Source: a virus (taxonomy: Duplodnaviria; Heunggongvirae; Uroviricota; Caudoviricetes). From it: a stretch of 9,362 nucleotides of DNA. Under the pieces are notes generated by a model that saw only the letters and a list, made by a program, of their open reading frames with translations, was not told where the DNA came from and did no database searches. This document shows, piece after piece, positions 1 to 9,362 of the stretch. The stretch's first letter is position 1; each line of letters starts with the position of its first letter. The position numbers and the translations under genes are program-made. Location of the stretch: the IMG/VR virus record IMGVR_UViG_2541047897_000003; one strand, written 5' to 3'.

Positions 1-1056
1 TTAAAACTGATAGGTCATGCCAACCGCGACAATATCATCATTATTAATATTCAATTTGTTATCGCTATCCAGTTGGTTGATTTTATAATCAACAAACGCT
101 GACATATTTTTGTTGAAATAATACGTAGCACCAACATCGACATAATTGACCAGATCTTCATCACCGATGCCCTCAATATCTTTCCCTTTCGATAAGACAT
201 AACCCAGCGATGGACGCAGACCAAAGTCAAACTGGTATTGAGCGACCGCTTCAAAGTTCTGCGTCTTATTGGCAAAGCCGCCAGAGATTGGCATCATTTT
301 ACGTGTTTCAGAATAGAAAGTTGCCAGATAAATATTATTGGCATCGTATTTCAGACCTGTTGCCCATGCTTCTGCACGCTTGCCTGTGCCACGGCTTTGC
401 AGGTTCTGCTCGTTGGTACGATCAGAGTTGGTATAGGCTCCACTGATGGCGAAATCGCTGCCACCAAAGTCATATGTCAATGACGTGCCGAAGCCATCGC
501 CGTTTTGCTTTTTAACGTCGCGGTTTTCGTTTTTCCCTTGATATTGCAGGGTTAAGTTCAGGCCATCGATAACGCCGAAGAAGTCGGTGTTCCGATACGT
601 CGCCAGACCGCTGGCGCGTTTGGTCATAAAGTTGTCGGTCTGCGCCGAGGAGTCGCCACCAAATTCCGGGAACATATCGGTCCAGGCTTCCACGTCATAC
701 AACGCGCCCAGGTTACGACCATAATCGAAAGAACCCAAATCTTTATATTTCAACCCGGCAAAAGCGAGACGCGTTTTTTGCTGTGCAGTATCACTCTCCG
801 CTTTATTACCGGCAAACTCAGCTTCCCAACGACCATAACCAGTCAGTTGATCGTTAATTTGTGTTTCGCCTTTAAAACCAAAACGGATATAACTCTGGTC
901 GCCATCTTTACTGTCATTATCACTCATATAATGCATGGCTTTAACTTTGCCATAGACATCCAGTTTATTACCGTCTTTGTTATATATTTCTGCGGCCTGT
1001 ACGGATACAGATGCCACAATGCCCATCACCACTAATGCCAGAGTGCTCTTTTTCAT
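1..1056 (-). CDS. phoE: Outer-membrane phosphoporin PhoE (phosphate-starvation-inducible anion porin), complete
   Basis: ORF track 1..1062 (-) translates to [18 protein letters not shown]...[18 protein letters not shown]... ending ...VGMTYQF (signal peptide, C-terminal Phe typical of general porins). Recognised from memory as E. coli PhoE. The second ATG (1056-1054) is preceded by AGGA at ~6 nt and gives the known MKKSTL N-terminus; stop codon at 1-3. Confidence 0.9.
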
Positions 1057-1128
1057 TTTCATTCCTGATTTTAATTAACGCGCGAATATTCAGCGGGAGA
1101 GTCCCGTTGAAAACAGGAAAGTTTTTAA

Positions 1129-1155
1129 CCTGAGATTGTTAAAGATATATTACAG
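1129..1155 (-). promoter_or_regulatory. Pho box (PhoB-binding site) of the phoE promoter
   Basis: Reverse complement of 1129-1155 reads CTGTAATATATCTTTAACAATCTCAGG, which matches my recollection of the phoE Pho box and the CTGT-N7-CTGT-like PhoB half-site spacing. It lies ~75-100 bp upstream of the phoE start. Confidence 0.6.
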
Positions 1156-1180
1156 ATTAATAATATTCTTAAAATGTGGT

Positions 1181-1352
1181 TGTATTGATTCACTTGAAGT
1201 ACGAAAAAAACCGGGAGGACATTGGATTATTCGGGATCTGATGGGATTAGATTTGGTGGGGCTTGCAAGCCTGTAGCGCAAATTTTAGTCGTTAATCAAT
1301 GAAACGCGAAAGATAGTAAAAAATTGCTTTTGTTTCATTGAAAATACGAAAA
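1181..1352 (+). repeat. Prophage left attachment end (attL) with three MuA-binding sites: L1 ~1186-1207, L2 ~1291-1312, L3 ~1331-1352
   Basis: The 5' TG terminus is at 1181. L1 (TGATTCACTTGAAGTACGAAAA) and L3 (TGTTTCATTGAAAATACGAAAA) fit the MuA end-site consensus YGTTTCAYTNNAARYRCGAAAR; L2 (..ATGAAACGCGAAAG) is a weaker match. Spacing of L1/L2/L3 from the terminus (~6, ~111, ~151) is as in Mu. Confidence 0.8.
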
Positions 1353-1518
1353 ACAAAAACACAGCAAATCATTTCAATAACAGCTTCAAAAAACGTTCAA
1401 AACCGATAACAACCAGGCTGTAACCAAATGACTCATATCACAAATCAGCTCATGCCGTTTAGGTATGTTACATGTGTGATTATGTGAGGTGAAGTATGTT
1501 TTAGCTGGTTCATGGTTG

Positions 1519-2034
1519 TTATACGGCTTTTTTTACATCTTGTGGTTCTTGTGAAGGAGCTACAAAACCTTCCTGTTCATGAATACCATACTCTGACAAA
1601 ATCTCTTTGCGCGCATCTGCTGGTAAAGTTTCTAGCATTTGGGCTAGTTGTATGCACTCACGCGATACGCCGTGCAGAGATTGGATTTGAGTCTGATCAA
1701 AGATACTTGGCATTAGTGCTCCAAGTCCGCCTTTACTAAGTAGCTTTAATGCCCTCTGGATTTCCTCTGGTTCTAACTCTGCGACCAAAGCCATTAACAC
1801 AGAAGCTAACTTATAAGCTGGCTTATCGCTATCTAATAACTGCGCCCCTCCTAATTCTGCCTGAGTGGCATCAGGTAATGAGCTGATATGGTATTCATAA
1901 GCAACTCCCTTTACTCCTTTGATCTGTCTCTTTTTCCATCCCTCATTAGTTGCTTTGCGGCTAATACTACTTGCTGAAGACGGAAGACCAGCAACCCCTT
2001 GTAGCTCTTTAGCTGAAAACCATTCTTGTGTCAT
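1519..2034 (-). CDS. c: Prophage repressor c (immunity repressor), D108-like rather than Mu-like; N-terminal winged-helix DNA-binding domain shared with the transposase
   Basis: ORF track 1519..2037 (-). The likely start is the ATG at 2034-2032, preceded by GAGG ~7 nt upstream on the minus strand (the track starts at an upstream GTG). Position and orientation match Mu c. The N-terminus ([24 protein letters not shown]...[15 protein letters not shown]) parallels the N-terminus of the adjacent transposase. Confidence 0.8.
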
Positions 2035-2233
2035 CACAAACCTCGCTTTAAATACACTGTGTATTCAAAGAAACAAAAATATATTCATTTTAAAATCATC
2101 AAGATAGATGAAATTCAAACGAAATATTTGAATACATCATTGCATTGACAATGTATTCACACTAACATTGCTGCATACCTTGTCAGCTACCTTGCGGCGT
2201 AGCTGATGGCGTAGCTTGTGAGGATTGCATTTT
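2035..2233. promoter_or_regulatory. Divergent early/repressor promoter-operator region, overlapping the expected transposition enhancer; repeated TGTATTCA motifs
   Basis: 200-bp AT-rich interval between divergent c and ner. TGTATTCA at 2060-2067 and 2152-2159, its complement TGAATACA at 2129-2136, and a one-mismatch copy at 2080-2087. Perfect 15-bp palindrome AATACACTGTGTATT at 2051-2065. TTGACA at 2145-2150 is a candidate -35 for the rightward early promoter, but no good -10 was found. Confidence 0.55.
2182..2218. promoter_or_regulatory. Putative Ner operator: inverted repeat plus direct repeat just upstream of ner
   Basis: Inverted repeat TCAGCTAC (2183-2190) / GTAGCTGA (2199-2206) with an 8-bp spacer. 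Direct repeat GGCGTAGCT at 2197-2205 and 2208-2216, 11 bp apart (one helical turn). This is where Ner-type repressors are known to bind in Mu and D108. Confidence 0.4.
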
Positions 2234-2452
2234 ATGGCGATAAAGAAAAGTAAATGTGAAGACAAAAGCAGATACGACATTGTTGCTGATCTGCGCAAAA
2301 GAGGAAAAAGCCTAGCAGCTCTTGGTCGTGAGAACGGTCTCTCTATCTCTACGGTAAAAAATGCCTTGGATAAACCTTACCCTCGGGGTGAAAGAATTAT
2401 TGCCGATGCATTGGGAGTTGAGCCACGAGACCTCTGGCCTTCGAGGTATTGA
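2234..2452 (+). CDS. ner: Ner-like DNA-binding protein (negative regulator of early and repressor transcription; Ner/Nlp family)
   Basis: ORF track 2225..2452 starts at TTG. The likely start is the ATG at 2234, with GAGG at 2219-2222. The product (MAIKKSK...[58 protein letters not shown]) has the Ner/Nlp HTH signature and C-terminal WPSRY. Its stop overlaps the transposase start region. Confidence 0.8.
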
Positions 2453-2454
2453 AA

Positions 2455-4455
2455 ATGCAACCACAATGTAATGATTGGTTTTCTGCAAAGAAATTAGAAG
2501 GGCTGATAGGTCTTCCAAAATCCTCTAGCGCGATCTCTCGTAAAGCAAGGTTAGAACAGTGGGTGTTTCGACAGATACACGGGGTAAGAGGAGTAGCCTA
2601 TGAGTTTCATATCTCATCTTTACCAAAGGAAACGCAAGCTGCGTTATTGCTTAGACAAGGAGAGATTGAAACAAGCATGGGCCGTTTTGAAATCGCCCGC
2701 CCCACGCTGGAAGCCCACGATTATGATCGCGAGGCGCTGTGGAGCAAATGGGATAACGCCAGCGATTCCCAGCGCAGACTTGCTGAAAAATGGTTGCCTG
2801 CGGTTCAGGCCGCAGACGAAATGCTGAACCAGGGGATTTCAACAAAAACGGCTTTTGCGACCGTTGCAGGACATTACCAGGTCAGCGCATCCACTTTGCG
2901 TGACAAGTATTACCAGGTACAGAAGTTTGCGAAGCCTGACTGGGCGGCTGCTCTTGTTGATGGACGTGGTGCATCCCGTCGCAATGTTCACAAAAGTGAA
3001 TTTGACGAGGATGCCTGGCAGTTTCTGATTGCAGATTATCTGCGACCGGAAAAACCCGCCTTCCGCAAATGTTATGAGCGTCTGGAACTGGCAGCCCGCG
3101 AGCATGGCTGGAGTATTCCCTCCCGTGCCACGGCCTTTCGCCGGATTCAGCAACTGAACGAGGCAATGGTTGTTGCCTGCCGTGAAGGTGAACATGCACT
3201 GATGCATCTGATACCGGCACAACAACGAACTGTGGAACACCTGGACGCCATGCAGTGGATCAACGGCGACGGTTATCTGCATAACGTCTTTGTACGCTGG
3301 TTTAACGGTGATGTGATCCGCCCGAAAACATGGTTCTGGCAGGATGTGAAAACCCGAAAAATTCTGGGCTGGCGCTGCGATGTGAGCGAGAACATTGATT
3401 CAATTCGCCTCTCGTTCATGGATGTTGTGACTCGCTACGGTATCCCGGAGGATTTTCACATCACCATTGATAACACCCGTGGTGCTGCGAATAAATGGCT
3501 GACGGGAGGCGCGCCCAATCGCTACCGCTTTAAGGTAAAAGAGGACGATCCAAAAGGACTGTTTTTACTGATGGGGGCGAAAATGCACTGGACAAGCGTT
3601 GTTGCCGGTAAAGGCTGGGGCCAGGCAAAACCTGTTGAACGTGCTTTCGGTGTTGGTGGGCTTGAGGAATACGTTGATAAGCATCCGGCACTGGCTGGCG
3701 CATATACGGGGCCTAATCCGCAGGCAAAACCTGATAACTATGGCGACCGCGCTGTTGATGCAGAGCTGTTTCTGAAAACCCTTGCCGAAGGTGTGGCGAT
3801 GTTCAATGCCAGAACAGGCCGTGAAACAGAAATGTGCGGAGGCAAACTTTCGTTTGATGACGTTTTTGAGCGTGAATACGCCAGAACGATTGTGCGTAAG
3901 CCTACCGAAGAGCAAAAACGGATGCTGTTACTGCCTGCCGAGGCGGTGAACGTTTCACGTAAAGGCGAGTTCGCGCTTAAAGTTGGCGGCTCCCTTAAAG
4001 GTGCGAAAAACGTTTATTACAACATGGCGTTAATGAATGCCGGAGTGAAAAAAGTTGTGGTCAGATTTGATCCACAGCAGTTACACAGCACGGTTTATTG
4101 CTACACCCTGGACGGTCGGTTTATCTGTGAAGCGGAATGTCTGTCACCTGTTGCGTTTAATGATGCTGCGGCAGGCCGTGAATATCGCCGCCGCCAGAAA
4201 CAACTGAAATCTGCGACGAAAGCAGCGATTAAGGCACAGAAACAAATGGATGCACTGGAAGTGGCAGAGCTGCTGCCGCAGATAGCCGAACCTGAAGCAC
4301 CAGAATCACGAATTGTCGGCATTTTCCGGCCTTCCGGTAATATGGAACGGGTGAAGAATCAGGAGCGTGATGATGAATACGAAACTGAGCGTGATGAATA
4401 TCTGAATCATTCGCTGGATATTCTGGAACAGAACAGACGTAAAAAAGCCATTTAA
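2455..4455 (+). CDS. A: Mu-type DDE transposase A (MuA) with a D108-like N-terminal enhancer/operator-binding domain
   Basis: ORF track 2449..4455 (668 aa from TTG). The likely start is the ATG at 2455, with GAGG at 2443-2446. From about residue 65 onward ([12 protein letters not shown]...[38 protein letters not shown]...) it matches Mu transposase as I recall it. DDE catalytic contexts are visible ([31 protein letters not shown]). Confidence 0.95.
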
Positions 4456-4493
4456 TTAACGTTTAAACAAAATTTAATTACGAGGTTATTCAG

Positions 4494-5432
4494 ATGAATA
4501 TTTCCGATATTCGCGCAGGACTGCGCACGCTTGTAGAAAATGAAGAAACCACCTTTAAACAAATTGCTCTTGAGAGCGGACTTTCTACCGGAACTATCAG
4601 TAGTTTTATCAATGATAAGTACAACGGGGATAACGAGCGTATTTCACAAATTCTGCAACGCTGGCTGGAAAAATATCATGCAGTTGCAGAACTACCTGAA
4701 CCGCCCCGCTTTGTGGAAACGCAGACGGTAAAACAAATCTGGACAAGTATGCGTTTTGCCAGCCTGACTGAAAGTATTGCTGTTGTATGTGGCAATCCTG
4801 GTGTGGGCAAAACCGAAGCGGCCCGTGAATATCGCCGCACCAATAACAATGTCTGGATGATCACCATTACGCCATCCTGTGCCAGCGTTCTGGAATGTCT
4901 TACTGAACTGGCGTTTGAGCTGGGAATGAATGACGCACCACGCCGTAAAGGGCCGCTCTCCCGCGCCCTGCGACGTCGCCTTGAAGGTACACAGGGGCTG
5001 GTTATCATCGACGAAGCTGATCATCTTGGTGCCGAAGTTCTGGAAGAACTCCGCCTGTTACAGGAATCAACCCGTATTGGCCTTGTGCTGATGGGAAATC
5101 ACCGGGTTTATTCAAATATGACGGGGGGTAACAGAACGGTTGAATTTGCCCGTCTGTTTTCCCGTATTGCAAAGCGCACTGCAATTAATAAAACAAAAAA
5201 AGCCGATGTAAAAGCTATTGCGGATGCCTGGCAGATTAACGGCGAAAAAGAACTGGAGTTATTACAGCAGATTGCGCAGAAACCAGGTGCGCTTCGCATT
5301 CTGAATCATTCACTTCGCCTTGCCGCCATGACGGCTCACGGTAAAGGTGAGCGTGTTAACGAAGATTATCTGCGTCAGGCTTTCCGTGAATTAGACCTGG
5401 ACGTTGATATTTCAACGCTGCTGCGTAATTAA
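4494..5432 (+). CDS. B: Mu B protein (AAA+ ATPase, target-DNA capture and transposition activator)
   Basis: 312-aa ORF with GAGG 7 nt upstream. N-terminus MNISDIRAGLRTLVENEETTFKQIALESGLSTGTISSFIND (HTH). Walker A GNPGVGKTEA and Walker B LVIIDEADHL. Length and sequence match MuB from memory. Confidence 0.95.
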   Translation: MNISDIRAGLRTLVENEETTFKQIALESGLSTGTISSFINDKYNGDNERISQILQRWLEKYHAVAELPEPPRFVETQTVKQIWTSMRFASLTESIAVVCGNPGVGKTEAAREYRRTNNNVWMITITPSCASVLECLTELAFELGMNDAPRRKGPLSRALRRRLEGTQGLVIIDEADHLGAEVLEELRLLQESTRIGLVLMGNHRVYSNMTGGNRTVEFARLFSRIAKRTAINKTKKADVKAIADAWQINGEKELELLQQIAQKPGALRILNHSLRLAAMTAHGKGERVNEDYLRQAFRELDLDVDISTLLRN

Positions 5433-5447
5433 GAAGGAGAAGAAATT

Positions 5448-5675
5448 ATGATGGCCCGAAATATAAAAATGGCAACGGATGCGCAGAACTGGTTACAGGC
5501 GCGCGGGAGTCATGTAAATGAATCATATCTCGGCGTGGCGCGTCCGATTCTTGAAATCACTTACCCACCGGTGGAACTGGTAAAAAGCGCGGTCAGAATT
5601 ATGGAGCATAAGTCCGGGGTGGCCCGTTCTGTATGGACGGCCCGTCTTAATGGTTGCCAGATTATCTGGAGATAA
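5448..5675 (+). CDS. kil: Kil-like small early protein (assigned by position immediately downstream of B, as in Mu)
   Basis: 75-aa ORF (74 aa if started at the ATG at 5451). GGAG at 5436-5439. Tightly packed after B in the same operon. Functional assignment is by synteny only. Confidence 0.55.
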
Positions 5676-5677
5676 CG

Positions 5678-5908
5678 ATGTGTATTAAAGCTGAAAAATA
5701 TATTGAATGGGTTAAACACTGTCAGTGCCACGGGGTGCCGCTGACGACATATAAATGCCCCGGATGTGGTGAACAGATTATGACGCAATGCTCACCCGAA
5801 AAGGAAATTCGGGATTCCCTGACATGTTGTCCGTGGTGCAGCGCGGTTTTCTTTAAGCAGGTAAAAGGCGCGAAGGTAAAAGCCAGCGCAGTTATTCAGA
5901 ATCAATAA
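5678..5908 (+). CDS. Hypothetical small Cys-rich (putative zinc-binding) early protein
   Basis: The ATG at 5678 follows the kil stop (5673-5675) by 2 nt, with GGAG at 5667-5670; the track ORF 5654..5908 starts further upstream. The 76-aa product has 9 Cys: C15-x-C17, C27-x2-C30, C38, C50-C51-x2-C54. Confidence 0.55.
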   Translation: MCIKAEKYIEWVKHCQCHGVPLTTYKCPGCGEQIMTQCSPEKEIRDSLTCCPWCSAVFFKQVKGAKVKASAVIQNQ

Positions 5909-5919
5909 GGAGAAACAAA

Positions 5920-6189
5920 ATGGCAAAGGTTATCTTTGAGTTTACATGGCTGGAAAGTAGTGACGGTTGCAATGGGCGCAGAGAAGTTCTGGATGCAAAA
6001 GCATGTCTTGCAGATATCTCGCCAACGGAAAATACCGGGCCTCATGATTTACTGGCAAATATCGTCCTGACTATGGCTCCTGAAATTATTAAAAAGGCCA
6101 AAGATGAGATGCTGACCACTATGAAGAAAGTGGGTATGGAAGCTGAATGTGATTTAGTACCACATCCGGTGAATGCGGTTAAACATTAA
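5920..6189 (+). CDS. Hypothetical early protein (89 aa)
   Basis: ORF with a strong RBS (AAGGAGA ~8 nt upstream of the ATG), co-directional and tightly spaced within the early operon. No recognisable motif. Confidence 0.55.
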   Translation: MAKVIFEFTWLESSDGCNGRREVLDAKACLADISPTENTGPHDLLANIVLTMAPEIIKKAKDEMLTTMKKVGMEAECDLVPHPVNAVKH

Positions 6190-6209
6190 TTCGCAAAGGA
6201 ACGCTGACA

Positions 6210-6629
6210 ATGAACGTCAAAATCCGAAATGAAATTCAGGCATTAATCCGAATTCAGGAACGCAATAACAACGGTGGTGAATTACGCGAGTTTATTTGCG
6301 CCCGAAAAGTTGATGATTGTGGTGAAAAGACTTACCTGATTGCTTTCGACCATTACAGCATCTGTGCGCGTTATTGCGGCGAAAGCATATCCCGCGCCAT
6401 TGCGTCTGGCGATGCGTTTAACGTGGATTTATGGGAGTACGTCATGGACCGGGAATACATCTGCGCATCAGACCCCGAAGCCCGTGAAATGTGGCAGCGT
6501 ATCTGGCGCGATTACCGGTTAATGGCAAAAGGCTGGGCGCGCTGCTGTTATTCCTCGCTTGCCCTGAAAGCGGTTCAGTTATCGCTGCGGCATATTCCGG
6601 CATCACTGCGCGAGCCTCTGCTGTACTGA
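6210..6629 (+). CDS. Hypothetical early protein (139 aa)
   Basis: ORF with AAGGA upstream. Stop TGA at 6627-6629 abuts the next ATG (TGAATG). Several Cys and Trp residues; no recognisable catalytic motif. Confidence 0.55.
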   Translation: MNVKIRNEIQALIRIQERNNNGGELREFICARKVDDCGEKTYLIAFDHYSICARYCGESISRAIASGDAFNVDLWEYVMDREYICASDPEAREMWQRIWRDYRLMAKGWARCCYSSLALKAVQLSLRHIPASLREPLLY

Positions 6630-6929
6630 ATGGTGGCTGACATGAAGTGTAATCGTAAGCGCTGGTCACGCGAAGACCGGGAATTTATCGAAGCCAGTGT
6701 CGGGAAAATGACCGTTGAAGAAATGGCGGAAAAACTGAAAGTCGCCACAACCGCCCTCCGGGCACATGCCAGAAGGCACGGAATATCATTGTGTGTATAC
6801 CGAATCAGTGAACACGACAAATATTTATGTCGTGAACTTTATAAAGAAGGGCTGGCTATTCATGTCATTGCCCGAAAGATGGAATTAAGCAATCGAGCTG
6901 TATCCAGCATTGTATACAGCGGATATTAA
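6630..6929 (+). CDS. Hypothetical small DNA-binding protein with two helix-turn-helix-like segments
   Basis: 99-aa ORF; alternative start ATG at 6642, preceded by GGTGG. First segment RKRWSREDREFIEASVGKMTVEEMAEKLKVATTALRAHARRHGIS resembles the HTH of IS3-family OrfA and terminase small subunits. A second HTH-like stretch is GLAIHVIARKMELSNRAVSSIVYSG. Confidence 0.5.
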   Translation: MVADMKCNRKRWSREDREFIEASVGKMTVEEMAEKLKVATTALRAHARRHGISLCVYRISEHDKYLCRELYKEGLAIHVIARKMELSNRAVSSIVYSGY

Positions 6930-6948
6930 TTAACAGGAGCTTTAATTT

Positions 6949-7473
6949 ATGGCTAAACCAGCAAAACGCATCAAAAGTGCCGCAGCGGCTTATGTGCCAC
7001 AAAACCGCGATGCGGTGATTACCGATATTAAACGCATCGGGGATTTACAGCGCGAAGCATCACGTCTGGAAACGGAAATGAATGATGCCATCGCGGAAAT
7101 TACGGAGAAATTTGCAGCCCGGATTGCACCGATTAAAACCGATATTGAAACCCTTTCAAAAGGCGTTCAGGGATGGTGTGAAGCGAACCGCGACGAACTG
7201 ACGAACGGCGGCAAAGTGAAGACGGCGAATCTTGTCACCGGTGATGTATCGTGGCGGGTCCGTCCACCATCAGTAAGTATTCGTGGTATGGATGCAGTGA
7301 TGGAAACGCTGGAGCGCCTTGGCCTGCAACGCTTTATTCGCACGAAGCAGGAAATCAACAAGGAGGCGATTTTACTGGAACCAAAAGCCGTCGCAGGTGT
7401 TGCCGGAATTACGGTTAAATCGGGAATTGAAGATTTTTCCATTATTCCATTTGAACAGGAAGCCGGTATTTAA
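6949..7473 (+). CDS. gam: Gam (Ku-like double-strand DNA-end-binding protein; host exonuclease inhibitor)
   Basis: 174-aa ORF with AGGAG ~10 nt upstream. Sequence MAKPAKRIKSAAAAYVPQNRDAVITDIKRIGDLQREASRLETEMNDAIAEI... matches Mu Gam from memory in length and sequence. Confidence 0.9.
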   Translation: MAKPAKRIKSAAAAYVPQNRDAVITDIKRIGDLQREASRLETEMNDAIAEITEKFAARIAPIKTDIETLSKGVQGWCEANRDELTNGGKVKTANLVTGDVSWRVRPPSVSIRGMDAVMETLERLGLQRFIRTKQEINKEAILLEPKAVAGVAGITVKSGIEDFSIIPFEQEAGI

Positions 7474-7515
7474 TACCACCATTAATATTTAATTAATTCA
7501 CATTCTTTTAATTAT

Positions 7516-7545
7516 GGCGCGATGCGTCAGGGGATTGCTCGCGCC
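7516..7545 (+). other. GC-rich inverted repeat (7-bp stem GGCGCGA/TCGCGCC, 16-nt loop) in the gam-downstream intergenic gap; not a canonical intrinsic terminator
   Basis: GGCGCGA at 7516-7522 pairs with TCGCGCC at 7539-7545. It sits in the only sizeable gap (7474-7571) of the early operon and is preceded by a very AT-rich stretch (7471-7515). No U-tract follows the stem. Confidence 0.3.
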
Positions 7546-7571
7546 TGAAACAGATTACTGAGGAATAAAAC

Positions 7572-8102
7572 ATGGTTGATGCAAAAATTCTGAATGGTGT
7601 CAGCACATTATTACGGGCTTACGGACGCCTGACCTGCGGGGTTCTGGCTGAAAAAATGCAGATGCCATCCTCCGCGATGGTGTACTTCCTGCGTGATGCG
7701 GTTGATGCCGGAATGCTGACTGAACTTAATGGTTTTTACGACGTACCGCGTCCCCGTACAGAGCAGCCTGTAAGACGAAACACAACTGAGCAGCCTGCTG
7801 TTGATGATGCGGTGTGGTGCAACTGGCGTCGCTCATTACCCTGGGTGGAAGGTAATACTATCCCCGCGCTGGCAAAAGAGTTTGCAACAGGCGTGCTGAC
7901 CTGTGAGTCCGTTCACATCGTTGCAGAAGTGGATGACGAGATGTGCAAACAGGGAATGCCCCGTTTTGTGATGGCTTATATCGATATCCGGCTGGGGCGG
8001 TTTATTTGCAGTTCAAGCGCCTGGAATATCACCGACCATGTACTGCGTTATCTCATTCTTGATTGTTCTCCGGCTCCCGCAGCGGTGCAGGAGGTGGCGT
8101 GA
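7572..8102 (+). CDS. Hypothetical early protein (176 aa) with an N-terminal winged-helix-like segment
   Basis: GAGG 9 nt upstream of the ATG. N-terminus GVSTLLRAYGRLTCGVLAEKMQMPSSAMVYFLRDAVDAGMLTE looks like an HTH or winged helix. Stop TGA at 8100-8102 overlaps the next start. Confidence 0.6.
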   Translation: MVDAKILNGVSTLLRAYGRLTCGVLAEKMQMPSSAMVYFLRDAVDAGMLTELNGFYDVPRPRTEQPVRRNTTEQPAVDDAVWCNWRRSLPWVEGNTIPALAKEFATGVLTCESVHIVAEVDDEMCKQGMPRFVMAYIDIRLGRFICSSSAWNITDHVLRYLILDCSPAPAAVQEVA

Positions 8103-8632
8103 TGTTTTTTAAAACGTCAAATCCCGCAGCACTGCTGGCATGGGACCAGTTTATGGCGGACTGCCTGAAACTACGCGAAGAAGCCCGCCATCTTGATAAG
8201 GTTCTGGGCTGTGGTTGCCGGTCAGTATTCAGCACAGGTATTGGTGGGCGTCATTTTCATGGCGTGAATTTTCCGGGGAATGAGCGCCCCTTCTCGCGGG
8301 AGCTGTGGACCGTACAACGGCCCGCATCAGGTAACAGTTGCAGGCCCAGAACTTCGCGGATACCTGCTCATCTCAGGGAGCAGGCAAGAGAGCTGGCGAA
8401 AATATGGCAGGAGAATATTCCGGTCACTTACGCCCGCACAGATGCTCTCTTACCCGCACTGGGACTGGATTTCAGCGCAACAATATTCGGACCTCTCCAG
8501 TGGTTCCGTGTTGGTGATGTGATTTACGTCATGACGGGGATGACACCCGCACAAGGCCGCATGACTGAAATCCTTTCGGACGAATTTATCCGGGCGCAAA
8601 AACAGGCAGAGGTAAACAATGGAAAACAGTGA
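8102..8632 (+). CDS. Hypothetical early protein (176 aa)
   Basis: ATG at 8102 is preceded by a perfect AGGAGG (8089-8094) at 7 nt and overlaps the upstream stop (GTGATG). The track ORF 8063..8632 starts at an upstream TTG that lacks an RBS. Confidence 0.6.
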   Translation: MFFKTSNPAALLAWDQFMADCLKLREEARHLDKVLGCGCRSVFSTGIGGRHFHGVNFPGNERPFSRELWTVQRPASGNSCRPRTSRIPAHLREQARELAKIWQENIPVTYARTDALLPALGLDFSATIFGPLQWFRVGDVIYVMTGMTPAQGRMTEILSDEFIRAQKQAEVNNGKQ

Positions 8633-8810
8633 AACATCGTATTCGTGGCTGGGGAAATTTACCACGGTGAAACAGGAATGCCCGACCTGCGGTAATGAAT
8701 CCCCTGAATATCTGAAAGAGTGCCCTCATTGTGGCAGGCAGAAATGCAACCACTGCGATATGGGCGATGACACGGCGTGCATGAATTGTGAAGGTGAACA
8801 GAATGAATAA
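8619..8810 (+). CDS. Hypothetical small double zinc-ribbon protein (63 aa, four CxxC pairs)
   Basis: GAGG 7 nt upstream. Product contains CPTC...CPHC...CNHC...CMNC (four C-x2-C pairs) and an acidic C-terminus. Overlaps the upstream ORF by 14 nt. Confidence 0.55.
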   Translation: MENSETSYSWLGKFTTVKQECPTCGNESPEYLKECPHCGRQKCNHCDMGDDTACMNCEGEQNE

Positions 8811-9111
8811 TGGCGTATTTACAAAATCCGAGGAGCTGACAGCGTTGTTGACGGCGGCTGGTTTTCCTGAAGATGTGATCGGTAACTTTGTGGCGGCGGT
8901 ATATGCCCCGTCTTATAACCGTGCAATTGATGAGGTCATGGCGTACCGACTCGGCATTGTTGCTGAGTCACTGAGTCCTCACTGGATTATTGAAAATCTC
9001 CGCGCTATTGCTGATGGCAACGATAAATCAGCAGCCGTTGCTGCACTGGATGTGTTACGGCAAATGAGTCTGAAATTTTATCCTGAATTTATTCTGAGGA
9101 CCGCAAAATGA
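8803..9111 (+). CDS. Hypothetical early protein (~102 aa)
   Basis: ATG at 8803 overlaps the previous stop (8808-8810), with AAGGTG upstream; the track starts at GTG 8788. No recognisable motif. Confidence 0.5.
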   Translation: MNNGVFTKSEELTALLTAAGFPEDVIGNFVAAVYAPSYNRAIDEVMAYRLGIVAESLSPHWIIENLRAIADGNDKSAAVAALDVLRQMSLKFYPEFILRTAK

Positions 9112-9362
9112 ACAATGAAGATAAATTTACACCCCTTAATATTGATAACGTCATGGCTGAAAAAAGGATGCTGGAACGTGTTCGCGCTATCGTTGAATAT
9201 GGTATTAAGCACGCTCTCACTGCCAGAGAAGTTCGTGACATTATCAACCGCGAAATGAATCGTCTGGAAACAGTAGTGGCACTGCAAAATGAAACAGCCC
9301 GCGAGGAGTACATCCGCCGCAGGCTGGGGTTATCAGACCAGGATATTGTTACTGACGCTCAT
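9108..9362 (+). CDS. Hypothetical early protein, 5' part only (runs off the window end)
   Basis: ATG at 9108 overlaps the upstream stop (ATGA), with GAGG at 9096-9099. My own translation of the open frame to the window edge is MNNEDKFTPLNIDNVMAEKRMLERVRAIVEYGIKHALTAREVRDIINREMNRLETVVALQNETAREEYIRRRLGLSDQDIVTDAH.... It is absent from the ORF track because it has no stop within the window. Confidence 0.5.
   Translation, partial: MNNEDKFTPLNIDNVMAEKRMLERVRAIVEYGIKHALTAREVRDIINREMNRLETVVALQNETAREEYIRRRLGLSDQDIVTDAH

Follow-up and report, generated by a model that had tools for sequence, protein, structure and literature searches.

What becomes of the phosphate regulation of phoE when a transposable phage comes to lie directly upstream of its promoter? 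PhoE is an anion-selective porin that is induced by phosphate starvation, and it also serves as a phage receptor and as an entry route for some antibiotics. The question is raised by a 9,362-nucleotide stretch of DNA from an IMG/VR virus record (IMGVR_UViG_2541047897_000003), called the window in what follows, in which the intergenic region between phoE and proB of a B2-type Escherichia coli runs into a Mu-family prophage with Mu-like ends, MuA, MuB and PhiR68_1-type immunity. The reading that we favour, at a probability of about 0.8, is that a random Mu-type insertion kept the core promoter, removed an upstream PhoB site in cis and lowered the ceiling of phoE induction. The host side of the window carries the following features:

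1–1056, minus strand: phoE coding sequence, a phosphoporin of 351 aa, 100% identical to LF82 and other phoE annotations (Pfam Porin_1, E = 3e-151)
1057–1137, minus strand: phoE leader and core promoter, same sequence in K-12 and LF82
1127–1122, minus strand: putative -10 element TAAAAA, 10 bp downstream of the Pho box, in a block conserved across genera
1138–1155, minus strand: core (promoter-proximal) Pho box CTGTAATATATCTTTAAC, 18 bp, located as an exact string
1156–1175, minus strand: kept portion of the spacer between two Pho boxes, A/T-rich and partly conserved
1176–1180: last five host bases, GTGGT, presumably the left-hand copy of the 5-bp target duplication, directly abutting Mu base 1

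Positions 1–1180 are 100% identical to many E. coli chromosomes (LF82, NRG857C, M-17), the flank matching phylogroup-B2 E. coli as far as a final host base at 1180, and bases 1036–1180 (including 1057–1180) are also free of differences from K-12 and LF82. LF82 annotates the locus as crl-phoE-proB-proA. Window position 1181 aligns with base 1 of phage Mu (AF083977), the left end opens with TGTATTGATTCAC, and the equivalent of the break in K-12 falls between 260224 and 260225. The original prediction, made from the letters of this DNA alone, had proposed a Mu-type left end with its 5' TG at 1181, some 125 bp upstream of the phoE start and some 25 bp distal to the Pho box; Mu base 1 indeed aligns there, with 345 of 350 bases identical, 124 host bases are counted between the phoE ATG (1056) and the Mu end, and 25 bp between the Pho box and the phage. 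Its further statements, that the insertion junction is exact and that all DNA farther upstream is phage, likewise held, the host being 100% identical up to 1180 and Mu-like sequence running from 1181 onward. The alignment check that it had suggested was also run, and 1063–1180 is continuous with proB-side sequence in the empty-site references LF82 and K-12.

A search with positions 1063–1360 against 5,426 complete E. coli genomes returned Mu-like prophages by the dozen at unrelated loci (mhpC, frdA, malG, arcC and others), the match starting in each case at query base 118–119, which corresponds to window 1180–1181. Since Mu base 1 aligns at 1181 and prophages at unrelated loci match only from there, the phage terminus can be placed exactly at that base. 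The junction is therefore exact and is no chance resemblance. None of the 5,426 genomes searched in this way spans the junction.

The repressor (left) end of the prophage is the end that abuts the phoE side, and from there the window contains:

1181–1518, plus strand: non-coding Mu-like left end (attL), with terminal 5'-TG at 1181–1182, aligned to Mu 1–350
1186–1207: MuA site L1, 0 mismatches to the consensus
about 1292–1313: MuA site L2, presumably, as positioned by identity to Mu
1331–1352: MuA site L3, 0 mismatches to the consensus
1519–2034, minus strand: immunity repressor of 171 aa, transcribed toward phoE (Pfam HTH_Tnp_Mu_1; annotated 'repressor' in PhiR68_1)
2035–2233: operator/promoter region between repressor and ner, from a consensus scan and its position by analogy with Mu
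2151 to 2123, minus strand: promoter-like site from a consensus scan, candidate repressor promoter
2234–2452, plus strand: ner-type early regulator of 72 aa (Pfam HTH_35; annotated 'Ner' in PhiR68_1)
2455–4455, plus strand: MuA-type DDE transposase of 666 aa (Pfam HTH_Tnp_Mu_1, HTH_Tnp_Mu_2, DDE_2 with E = 2e-136, Mu-transpos_C)
4494–5432, plus strand: MuB-type AAA+ target-capture ATPase of 312 aa (Pfam Phage-MuB_C, AAA_22)
5448–9362, plus strand: semi-essential early region with kil, gp6, small ORFs, gam, gp11, gp12 and more small ORFs
6949–7473, plus strand: gam (Pfam)
7572–8102, plus strand: gp11 (Pfam)
8102–8632, plus strand: gp12

The MuA and MuB genes follow a divergent repressor/ner switch, as in Mu-like transposable phages (Muvirus), whose genomes run from 5'-TG to CA-3' with MuA sites at the left end, and the order of the early genes is the same as in related prophages; the final ORF continues beyond the window end at 9362. 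Consensus MuA sites would be expected by chance 0.09 times. Against phage records (megablast, 1181–9362), Mu itself (AF083977 / NC_000929) is about 97% identical over 81% of the phage part, and shares the order repressor, ner, A, B, kil ... gam, gp11, gp12 as well as perfect L1 and L3 sites. It differs in its immunity region, which is another allele: the Mu repressor has 196 aa against 171 aa here and an N-terminal part that is not the same, the Mu ner has 75 aa against 72 aa, and the semi-essential region of Mu is partly non-aligning. The best match is Escherichia phage PhiR68_1 (PV340575), with 98.3% identity over window 1181–8586 (the first 7.4 kb), and it agrees with the window in the 171-aa repressor, in ner and in the layout with a 666-aa transposase; unlike the present prophage it is a virion genome, its host flanks are unrelated and it has no phoE insertion. 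The repressor allele is thus neither that of Mu nor that of D108 and is identical in type to that of PhiR68_1. As an observation on the right part of the window, the match to PhiR68_1 stops at about 8586, and Mu and Yersinia Mu-like phages align on to 9362; judged from these alignments, the semi-essential early region is mosaic.

How this prophage came to phoE can be approached through its relatives. The lineage is very common: 4,520 collection blocks list the exact repressor, and at least 1,000 contigs from E. coli and Salmonella carry the exact transposase; ner, kil and gp6 are too common for tracing insertion sites, and the rarest protein of the window, a 99-aa ORF, is on 43 contigs. Two exact-protein look-ups, one with the repressor and one with the 99-aa ORF, gave 20 places, each with a different host neighbourhood beside the repressor end, which fits near-random Mu-type targeting. 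In the 24 of 44 blocks covered, phoE was not among these 20 insertion places, and the junction was in no locus that was fetched. The 200 bp around the insertion site are uninterrupted in 5,369 of 5,404 complete E. coli genomes, and phoE-proB is accordingly ruled out as a recurrent insertion hotspot; the one partial match listed for the site comes from a laboratory strain, and we suspect that the other exceptions to an intact site include lac-proAB deletion strains. Most likely, then, the choice of site reflects random Mu-type transposition and phoE was not targeted.

The five bases at the junction can be compared with the target preference of Mu. Its target consensus is the degenerate pentamer CYSRG (PMC7350765), with which GTGGT/ACCAC at phoE shares the central YSR but neither the C nor the G at the ends. 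In strain 20AH011, a sister prophage whose left end is identical has ACCAC on both flanks, so this lineage makes the expected 5-bp duplication. The sister lies between tonB and yciA (locus L106, 1966–1975 and 38462–38472), where the last codons of tonB are altered. The same pentamer (ACCAC/GTGGT) is common to the sister and to the window, which is probably a coincidence within the target preference of Mu.

If the junction arose by simple transposition, the proB-side sequence should lie beyond the right end of the prophage. The assumed right end would read GTGGT-AATTTATTAAATCTGTAAT; a simple insertion predicts ...CGCCGCTTCA-GTGGT-AATTTATTAAATCTG there, and the expected right flank can also be written ...TTCGTGCGCCGCTTCA-GTGGT-AATTTATTAAATCTGTAATAAAAGCGTAAAC..., with proB expected about 164 bp farther along. 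The 29-mer of the left junction was absent from viral, genome and metagenome contigs, the predicted right junction was absent from viral contigs, and a version of it that is agnostic to the pentamer was absent from metagenome contigs. The break might instead mark one side of a deletion or inversion brought about by Mu, or come from a chimeric assembly, and the right flank would then not be the proB side. Replicative transposition of Mu does generate adjacent rearrangements, the window shows the left end alone, and the junction was found in none of the searched contig collections or complete E. coli genomes. Against such an origin, the host sequence is flawless right up to a break that falls precisely at Mu base 1, the pentamer beside it carries the central YSR of the target consensus, the sister prophage with the identical left end carries a clean 5-bp duplication, and the visible phage genes are all intact and identical to widespread alleles. 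We consider a rearrangement or a chimera very improbable and continue with a simple insertion.

What the insertion left to phoE is a complete core promoter. An 18-bp Pho box takes the place of the -35 element about 10 bp upstream of the -10. The phoE promoter has this layout of a PhoB-activated promoter, a Pho box, then 10 bp, then the putative -10, and it is identical in K-12. The original prediction had given the Pho box as 1129–1155: the box is present, and its extent is corrected to the 18 bp at 1138–1155, which share 15 of 18 positions with the consensus CTGTCATAWAWCTGTCAY, lie at 260182–260199 in K-12 and are conserved in 41 enterobacterial phoE loci. From the usual spacing between Pho box and -10, which was also used to place the -10 itself, transcription would start near 1115, which would put the end of the phage near -65. 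The claim that the core PhoB site and the promoter are intact agrees with these data, as box, putative -10 and leader are unchanged relative to K-12 and LF82. As a minor point on the gene itself, a second in-frame ATG at 1062 adds Met-Lys to the reading frame (MKMKKSTL against the annotated MKKSTL from 1056), and phoE has 353 aa by mechanical ORF call and 351 aa as annotated.

What the insertion took away is seen at the empty site. The bases after GTGGT in LF82 and K-12 are AATTTATTAAAT, and next comes an inverted Pho box, CTGTAATAAAAGCGTAAAC (as written on the proB strand), which lies at K-12 260237–260255 in the orientation opposite to phoE and starts 12 bp past the insertion point. The prophage is located within the 37-bp spacer that separates the core and the upstream Pho boxes. 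The host sequence of the window stops 12 bp before the upstream box, which is absent from the window. With the prophage in that spacer, the upstream PhoB site is presumably about 37 kb away in this strain.

That the upstream box is a site of PhoB binding is supported by a genome-wide study of K-12 (Fitzgerald et al., 2023; PMC10294691), in which a PhoB ChIP-seq peak at 260277 was attributed to phoE/proB and assigned the motif TGTAATAAAAGCGTAAAC. An upstream inverted Pho box, tentatively mentioned in the original prediction, thus exists in both LF82 and K-12 and coincides with a PhoB ChIP-seq motif (PMC10294691). In the same study phoE RNA fell from 68,155 to 69 in a phoB deletion and the change of proB was not significant (PMC10294691); as proB shows no significant PhoB dependence, the upstream box has no other obvious client. 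Of the two boxes, the upstream one lies nearer to the peak centre at 260277. Motifs were searched with MEME within 50 bp on each side of the peak centre, 100 bp in total (PMC10294691), and since the core box lies outside that range, the ChIP-seq study gives no ranking of the two Pho boxes.

The phage end does not supply a substitute. No match of at least 12 of 18 positions to a Pho box occurs in 1181–1600, and replacement of the lost element by a PhoB site from the Mu left end is ruled out on this count.

The two boxes were then compared across phoE loci taken from one genome per species, which gave 41 loci whose PhoE is at least 79% identical (L026–L066); an upstream box was called where an inverted sequence matched the Pho consensus at 13 or more of 18 positions, and distances were measured from left edge to left edge. 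In 35 of the 41 enterobacterial species (about 12 genera), an inverted Pho box precedes the core box at a distance of exactly 55 bp; the genera include Escherichia, Citrobacter, Enterobacter, Lelliottia, Leclercia and Raoultella, and further Silvania, Huaxiibacter, Buttiauxella, Dryocola and Superficieibacter. When offsets from 25 to 120 bp were tested, 55 was the single best offset in 32 of the 41 loci, and the background of matches at 13 or more of 18 is 0.32 per kb (in the window, both strands combined). Column conservation is 0.87 for the core box and 0.82 for the upstream box, with 0.63–0.77 in the adjoining stretches. In some genera the upstream box is the closer of the two to the consensus, as in Raoultella terrigena (CTGTCATAAAATTGTCAT, 17/18). 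The boxes lie about 96–172 bp upstream of each phoE ATG, and the distance from box to ATG varies between -96 and -117; in LF82 the pair occupies 2638–2711 of locus L001. Part of this conservation reflects shared ancestry, as the sampled species are related. The 55 bp correspond to five helical turns, and the strictly conserved spacing is the most interesting by-product of the analysis.

Two side observations belong to this comparison. On the proB side, the blocks GTTGCCAAC and GGATCAGCAAGCGTAGCGGCA (LF82 L001, about 2712–2800) show strong conservation between genera; they may serve as promoter or regulatory elements of proB, and in the strain of the window they would lie past the right end of the prophage. 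A locus labelled Enterobacter hormaechei strain B56 (CP170191.1, L026) has a PhoE 99% identical to the E. coli PhoE of the window, compared with about 85–87% in other Enterobacter species, and its upstream Pho-box matches agree with those of LF82 in both sequence and position. Mislabelling of the record, or the presence of E. coli DNA in it, may be the reason.

From these elements the consequence for phoE can be predicted. The upstream box, bound by PhoB in vivo, would be parted from its promoter by the whole prophage of about 37 kb. As PhoB is still able to activate from the core box, phoE should stay phosphate-regulated, and as a conserved upstream PhoB site has been lost in cis, the maximal induction is predicted to be reduced. 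As far as the sequence allows a judgement, phoE induction is probably weakened in this one strain. The effect could be mild, since many Pho promoters work with a single promoter-proximal Pho box.

It is possible, though we find it doubtful, that the insertion is neutral for regulation, the core box and the retained 25 bp of spacer being sufficient and the upstream box being dispensable or otherwise used. The core box, the retained spacer, the -10 and the leader are 100% intact, a single Pho box suffices at other Pho promoters, and the motif assignment in the ChIP-seq work was made without comparing the two boxes. A dispensable element is, however, hard to reconcile with a 55-bp offset that is fixed in 35 of 41 species, with an upstream box that beats the core box in some genera (17/18 in Raoultella), and with a proB gene that has no significant PhoB dependence. 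Also on this side of the argument stands deletion work by Tommassen et al. from 1987 (in J Mol Biol), said to have found that efficient PhoE expression needs an element located upstream of the phoE promoter. To our knowledge this is the sole experimental test of what the upstream box contributes. Its deletions reportedly kept the core Pho box and the -10 and removed the upstream inverted box, as is the case here, which would make them, in overall design, the closest experimental analogue of the predicted phenotype. In contrast to those deletions, the DNA that replaces the upstream region here is not vector, it is a 37-kb prophage with a repressor gene pointing at phoE.

The orientation of that gene suggests another way in which the prophage might act. 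Transcription from the repressor promoter could read out of the left end and give low, PhoB-independent expression of phoE in the lysogen. The repressor (1519–2034) shares the minus strand with phoE, a promoter-like site precedes the repressor on that strand (2151–2123), and a strict scan of the minus strand from 2500 to 1000 found no strong intrinsic terminator. A lenient scan, on the other hand, finds two weak hairpins inside attL, 3' of the repressor stop on the minus strand (window 1318–1400), both A/U-rich and followed by U tracts: one of -9.7 kcal/mol before a U6 at 1323–1318, which overlaps L3, and a second of -6.2 kcal/mol before 1393. To judge from their sequence, they might be leaky terminators of the repressor transcript. 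Rho could also terminate transcription in the 338-nt untranslated stretch past the repressor stop, strong polarity is a classical property of Mu insertions, and transcript data were looked for and none were found. We regard read-out into phoE as unlikely; where it did occur, phage-derived transcription toward phoE could offset the loss of the upstream box.

A different contribution of the prophage may be imagined from the way in which Mu is held in the chromosome. The ends of a Mu prophage are kept together in vivo, such that two loxP sites, each placed about 70 bp beyond a prophage end, recombine as though only 190 bp separated them (PMC3820752), and the displaced PhoB site could therefore stay spatially near the phoE promoter and contribute by looping. 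The idea that the prophage is more than passive in either manner, with looping that keeps the displaced site working or read-out that ties phoE to lysogeny, is to our mind highly unlikely. If it were true, a porin that is a phage receptor and an antibiotic route would come under the influence of a prophage.

Under the favoured reading, simple insertion with loss of the upstream site, the event itself is of a well-known kind, a Mu-like prophage of a widespread lineage placed by random insertion in an intergenic control region, and knowledge of Mu and of the Pho regulon is unchanged by it. It resembles the classical regulatory mutations induced by Mu or IS elements, in which a transposable element in an intergenic control region likewise parts a promoter from its upstream activator site; those mutants were selected, whereas the strain of the window is a natural isolate. 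The strain can be regarded as a natural cis mutant that has kept the core Pho box and has its PhoB-bound upstream box presumably some 37 kb off. Comparison with a prophage-free relative would directly test the contribution of the inverted Pho box at its 55-bp spacing.

Two further observations concern the wider prophage lineage. Prophages that carry the rare 99-aa early protein have at least three immunity modules (compared over window 1519–2452 and loci L013–L022), with repressors of 171 aa, 174 aa or a 188-aa HTH_3 type, ner proteins of 72 or 75 aa and transposases of 663–666 aa; from these sequences the immunity region has evidently been swapped as a cassette in the lineage. One related Mu-like prophage is nested in another prophage (L004, 10759–20516), where a P22-type portal gene adjoins the Mu left end.
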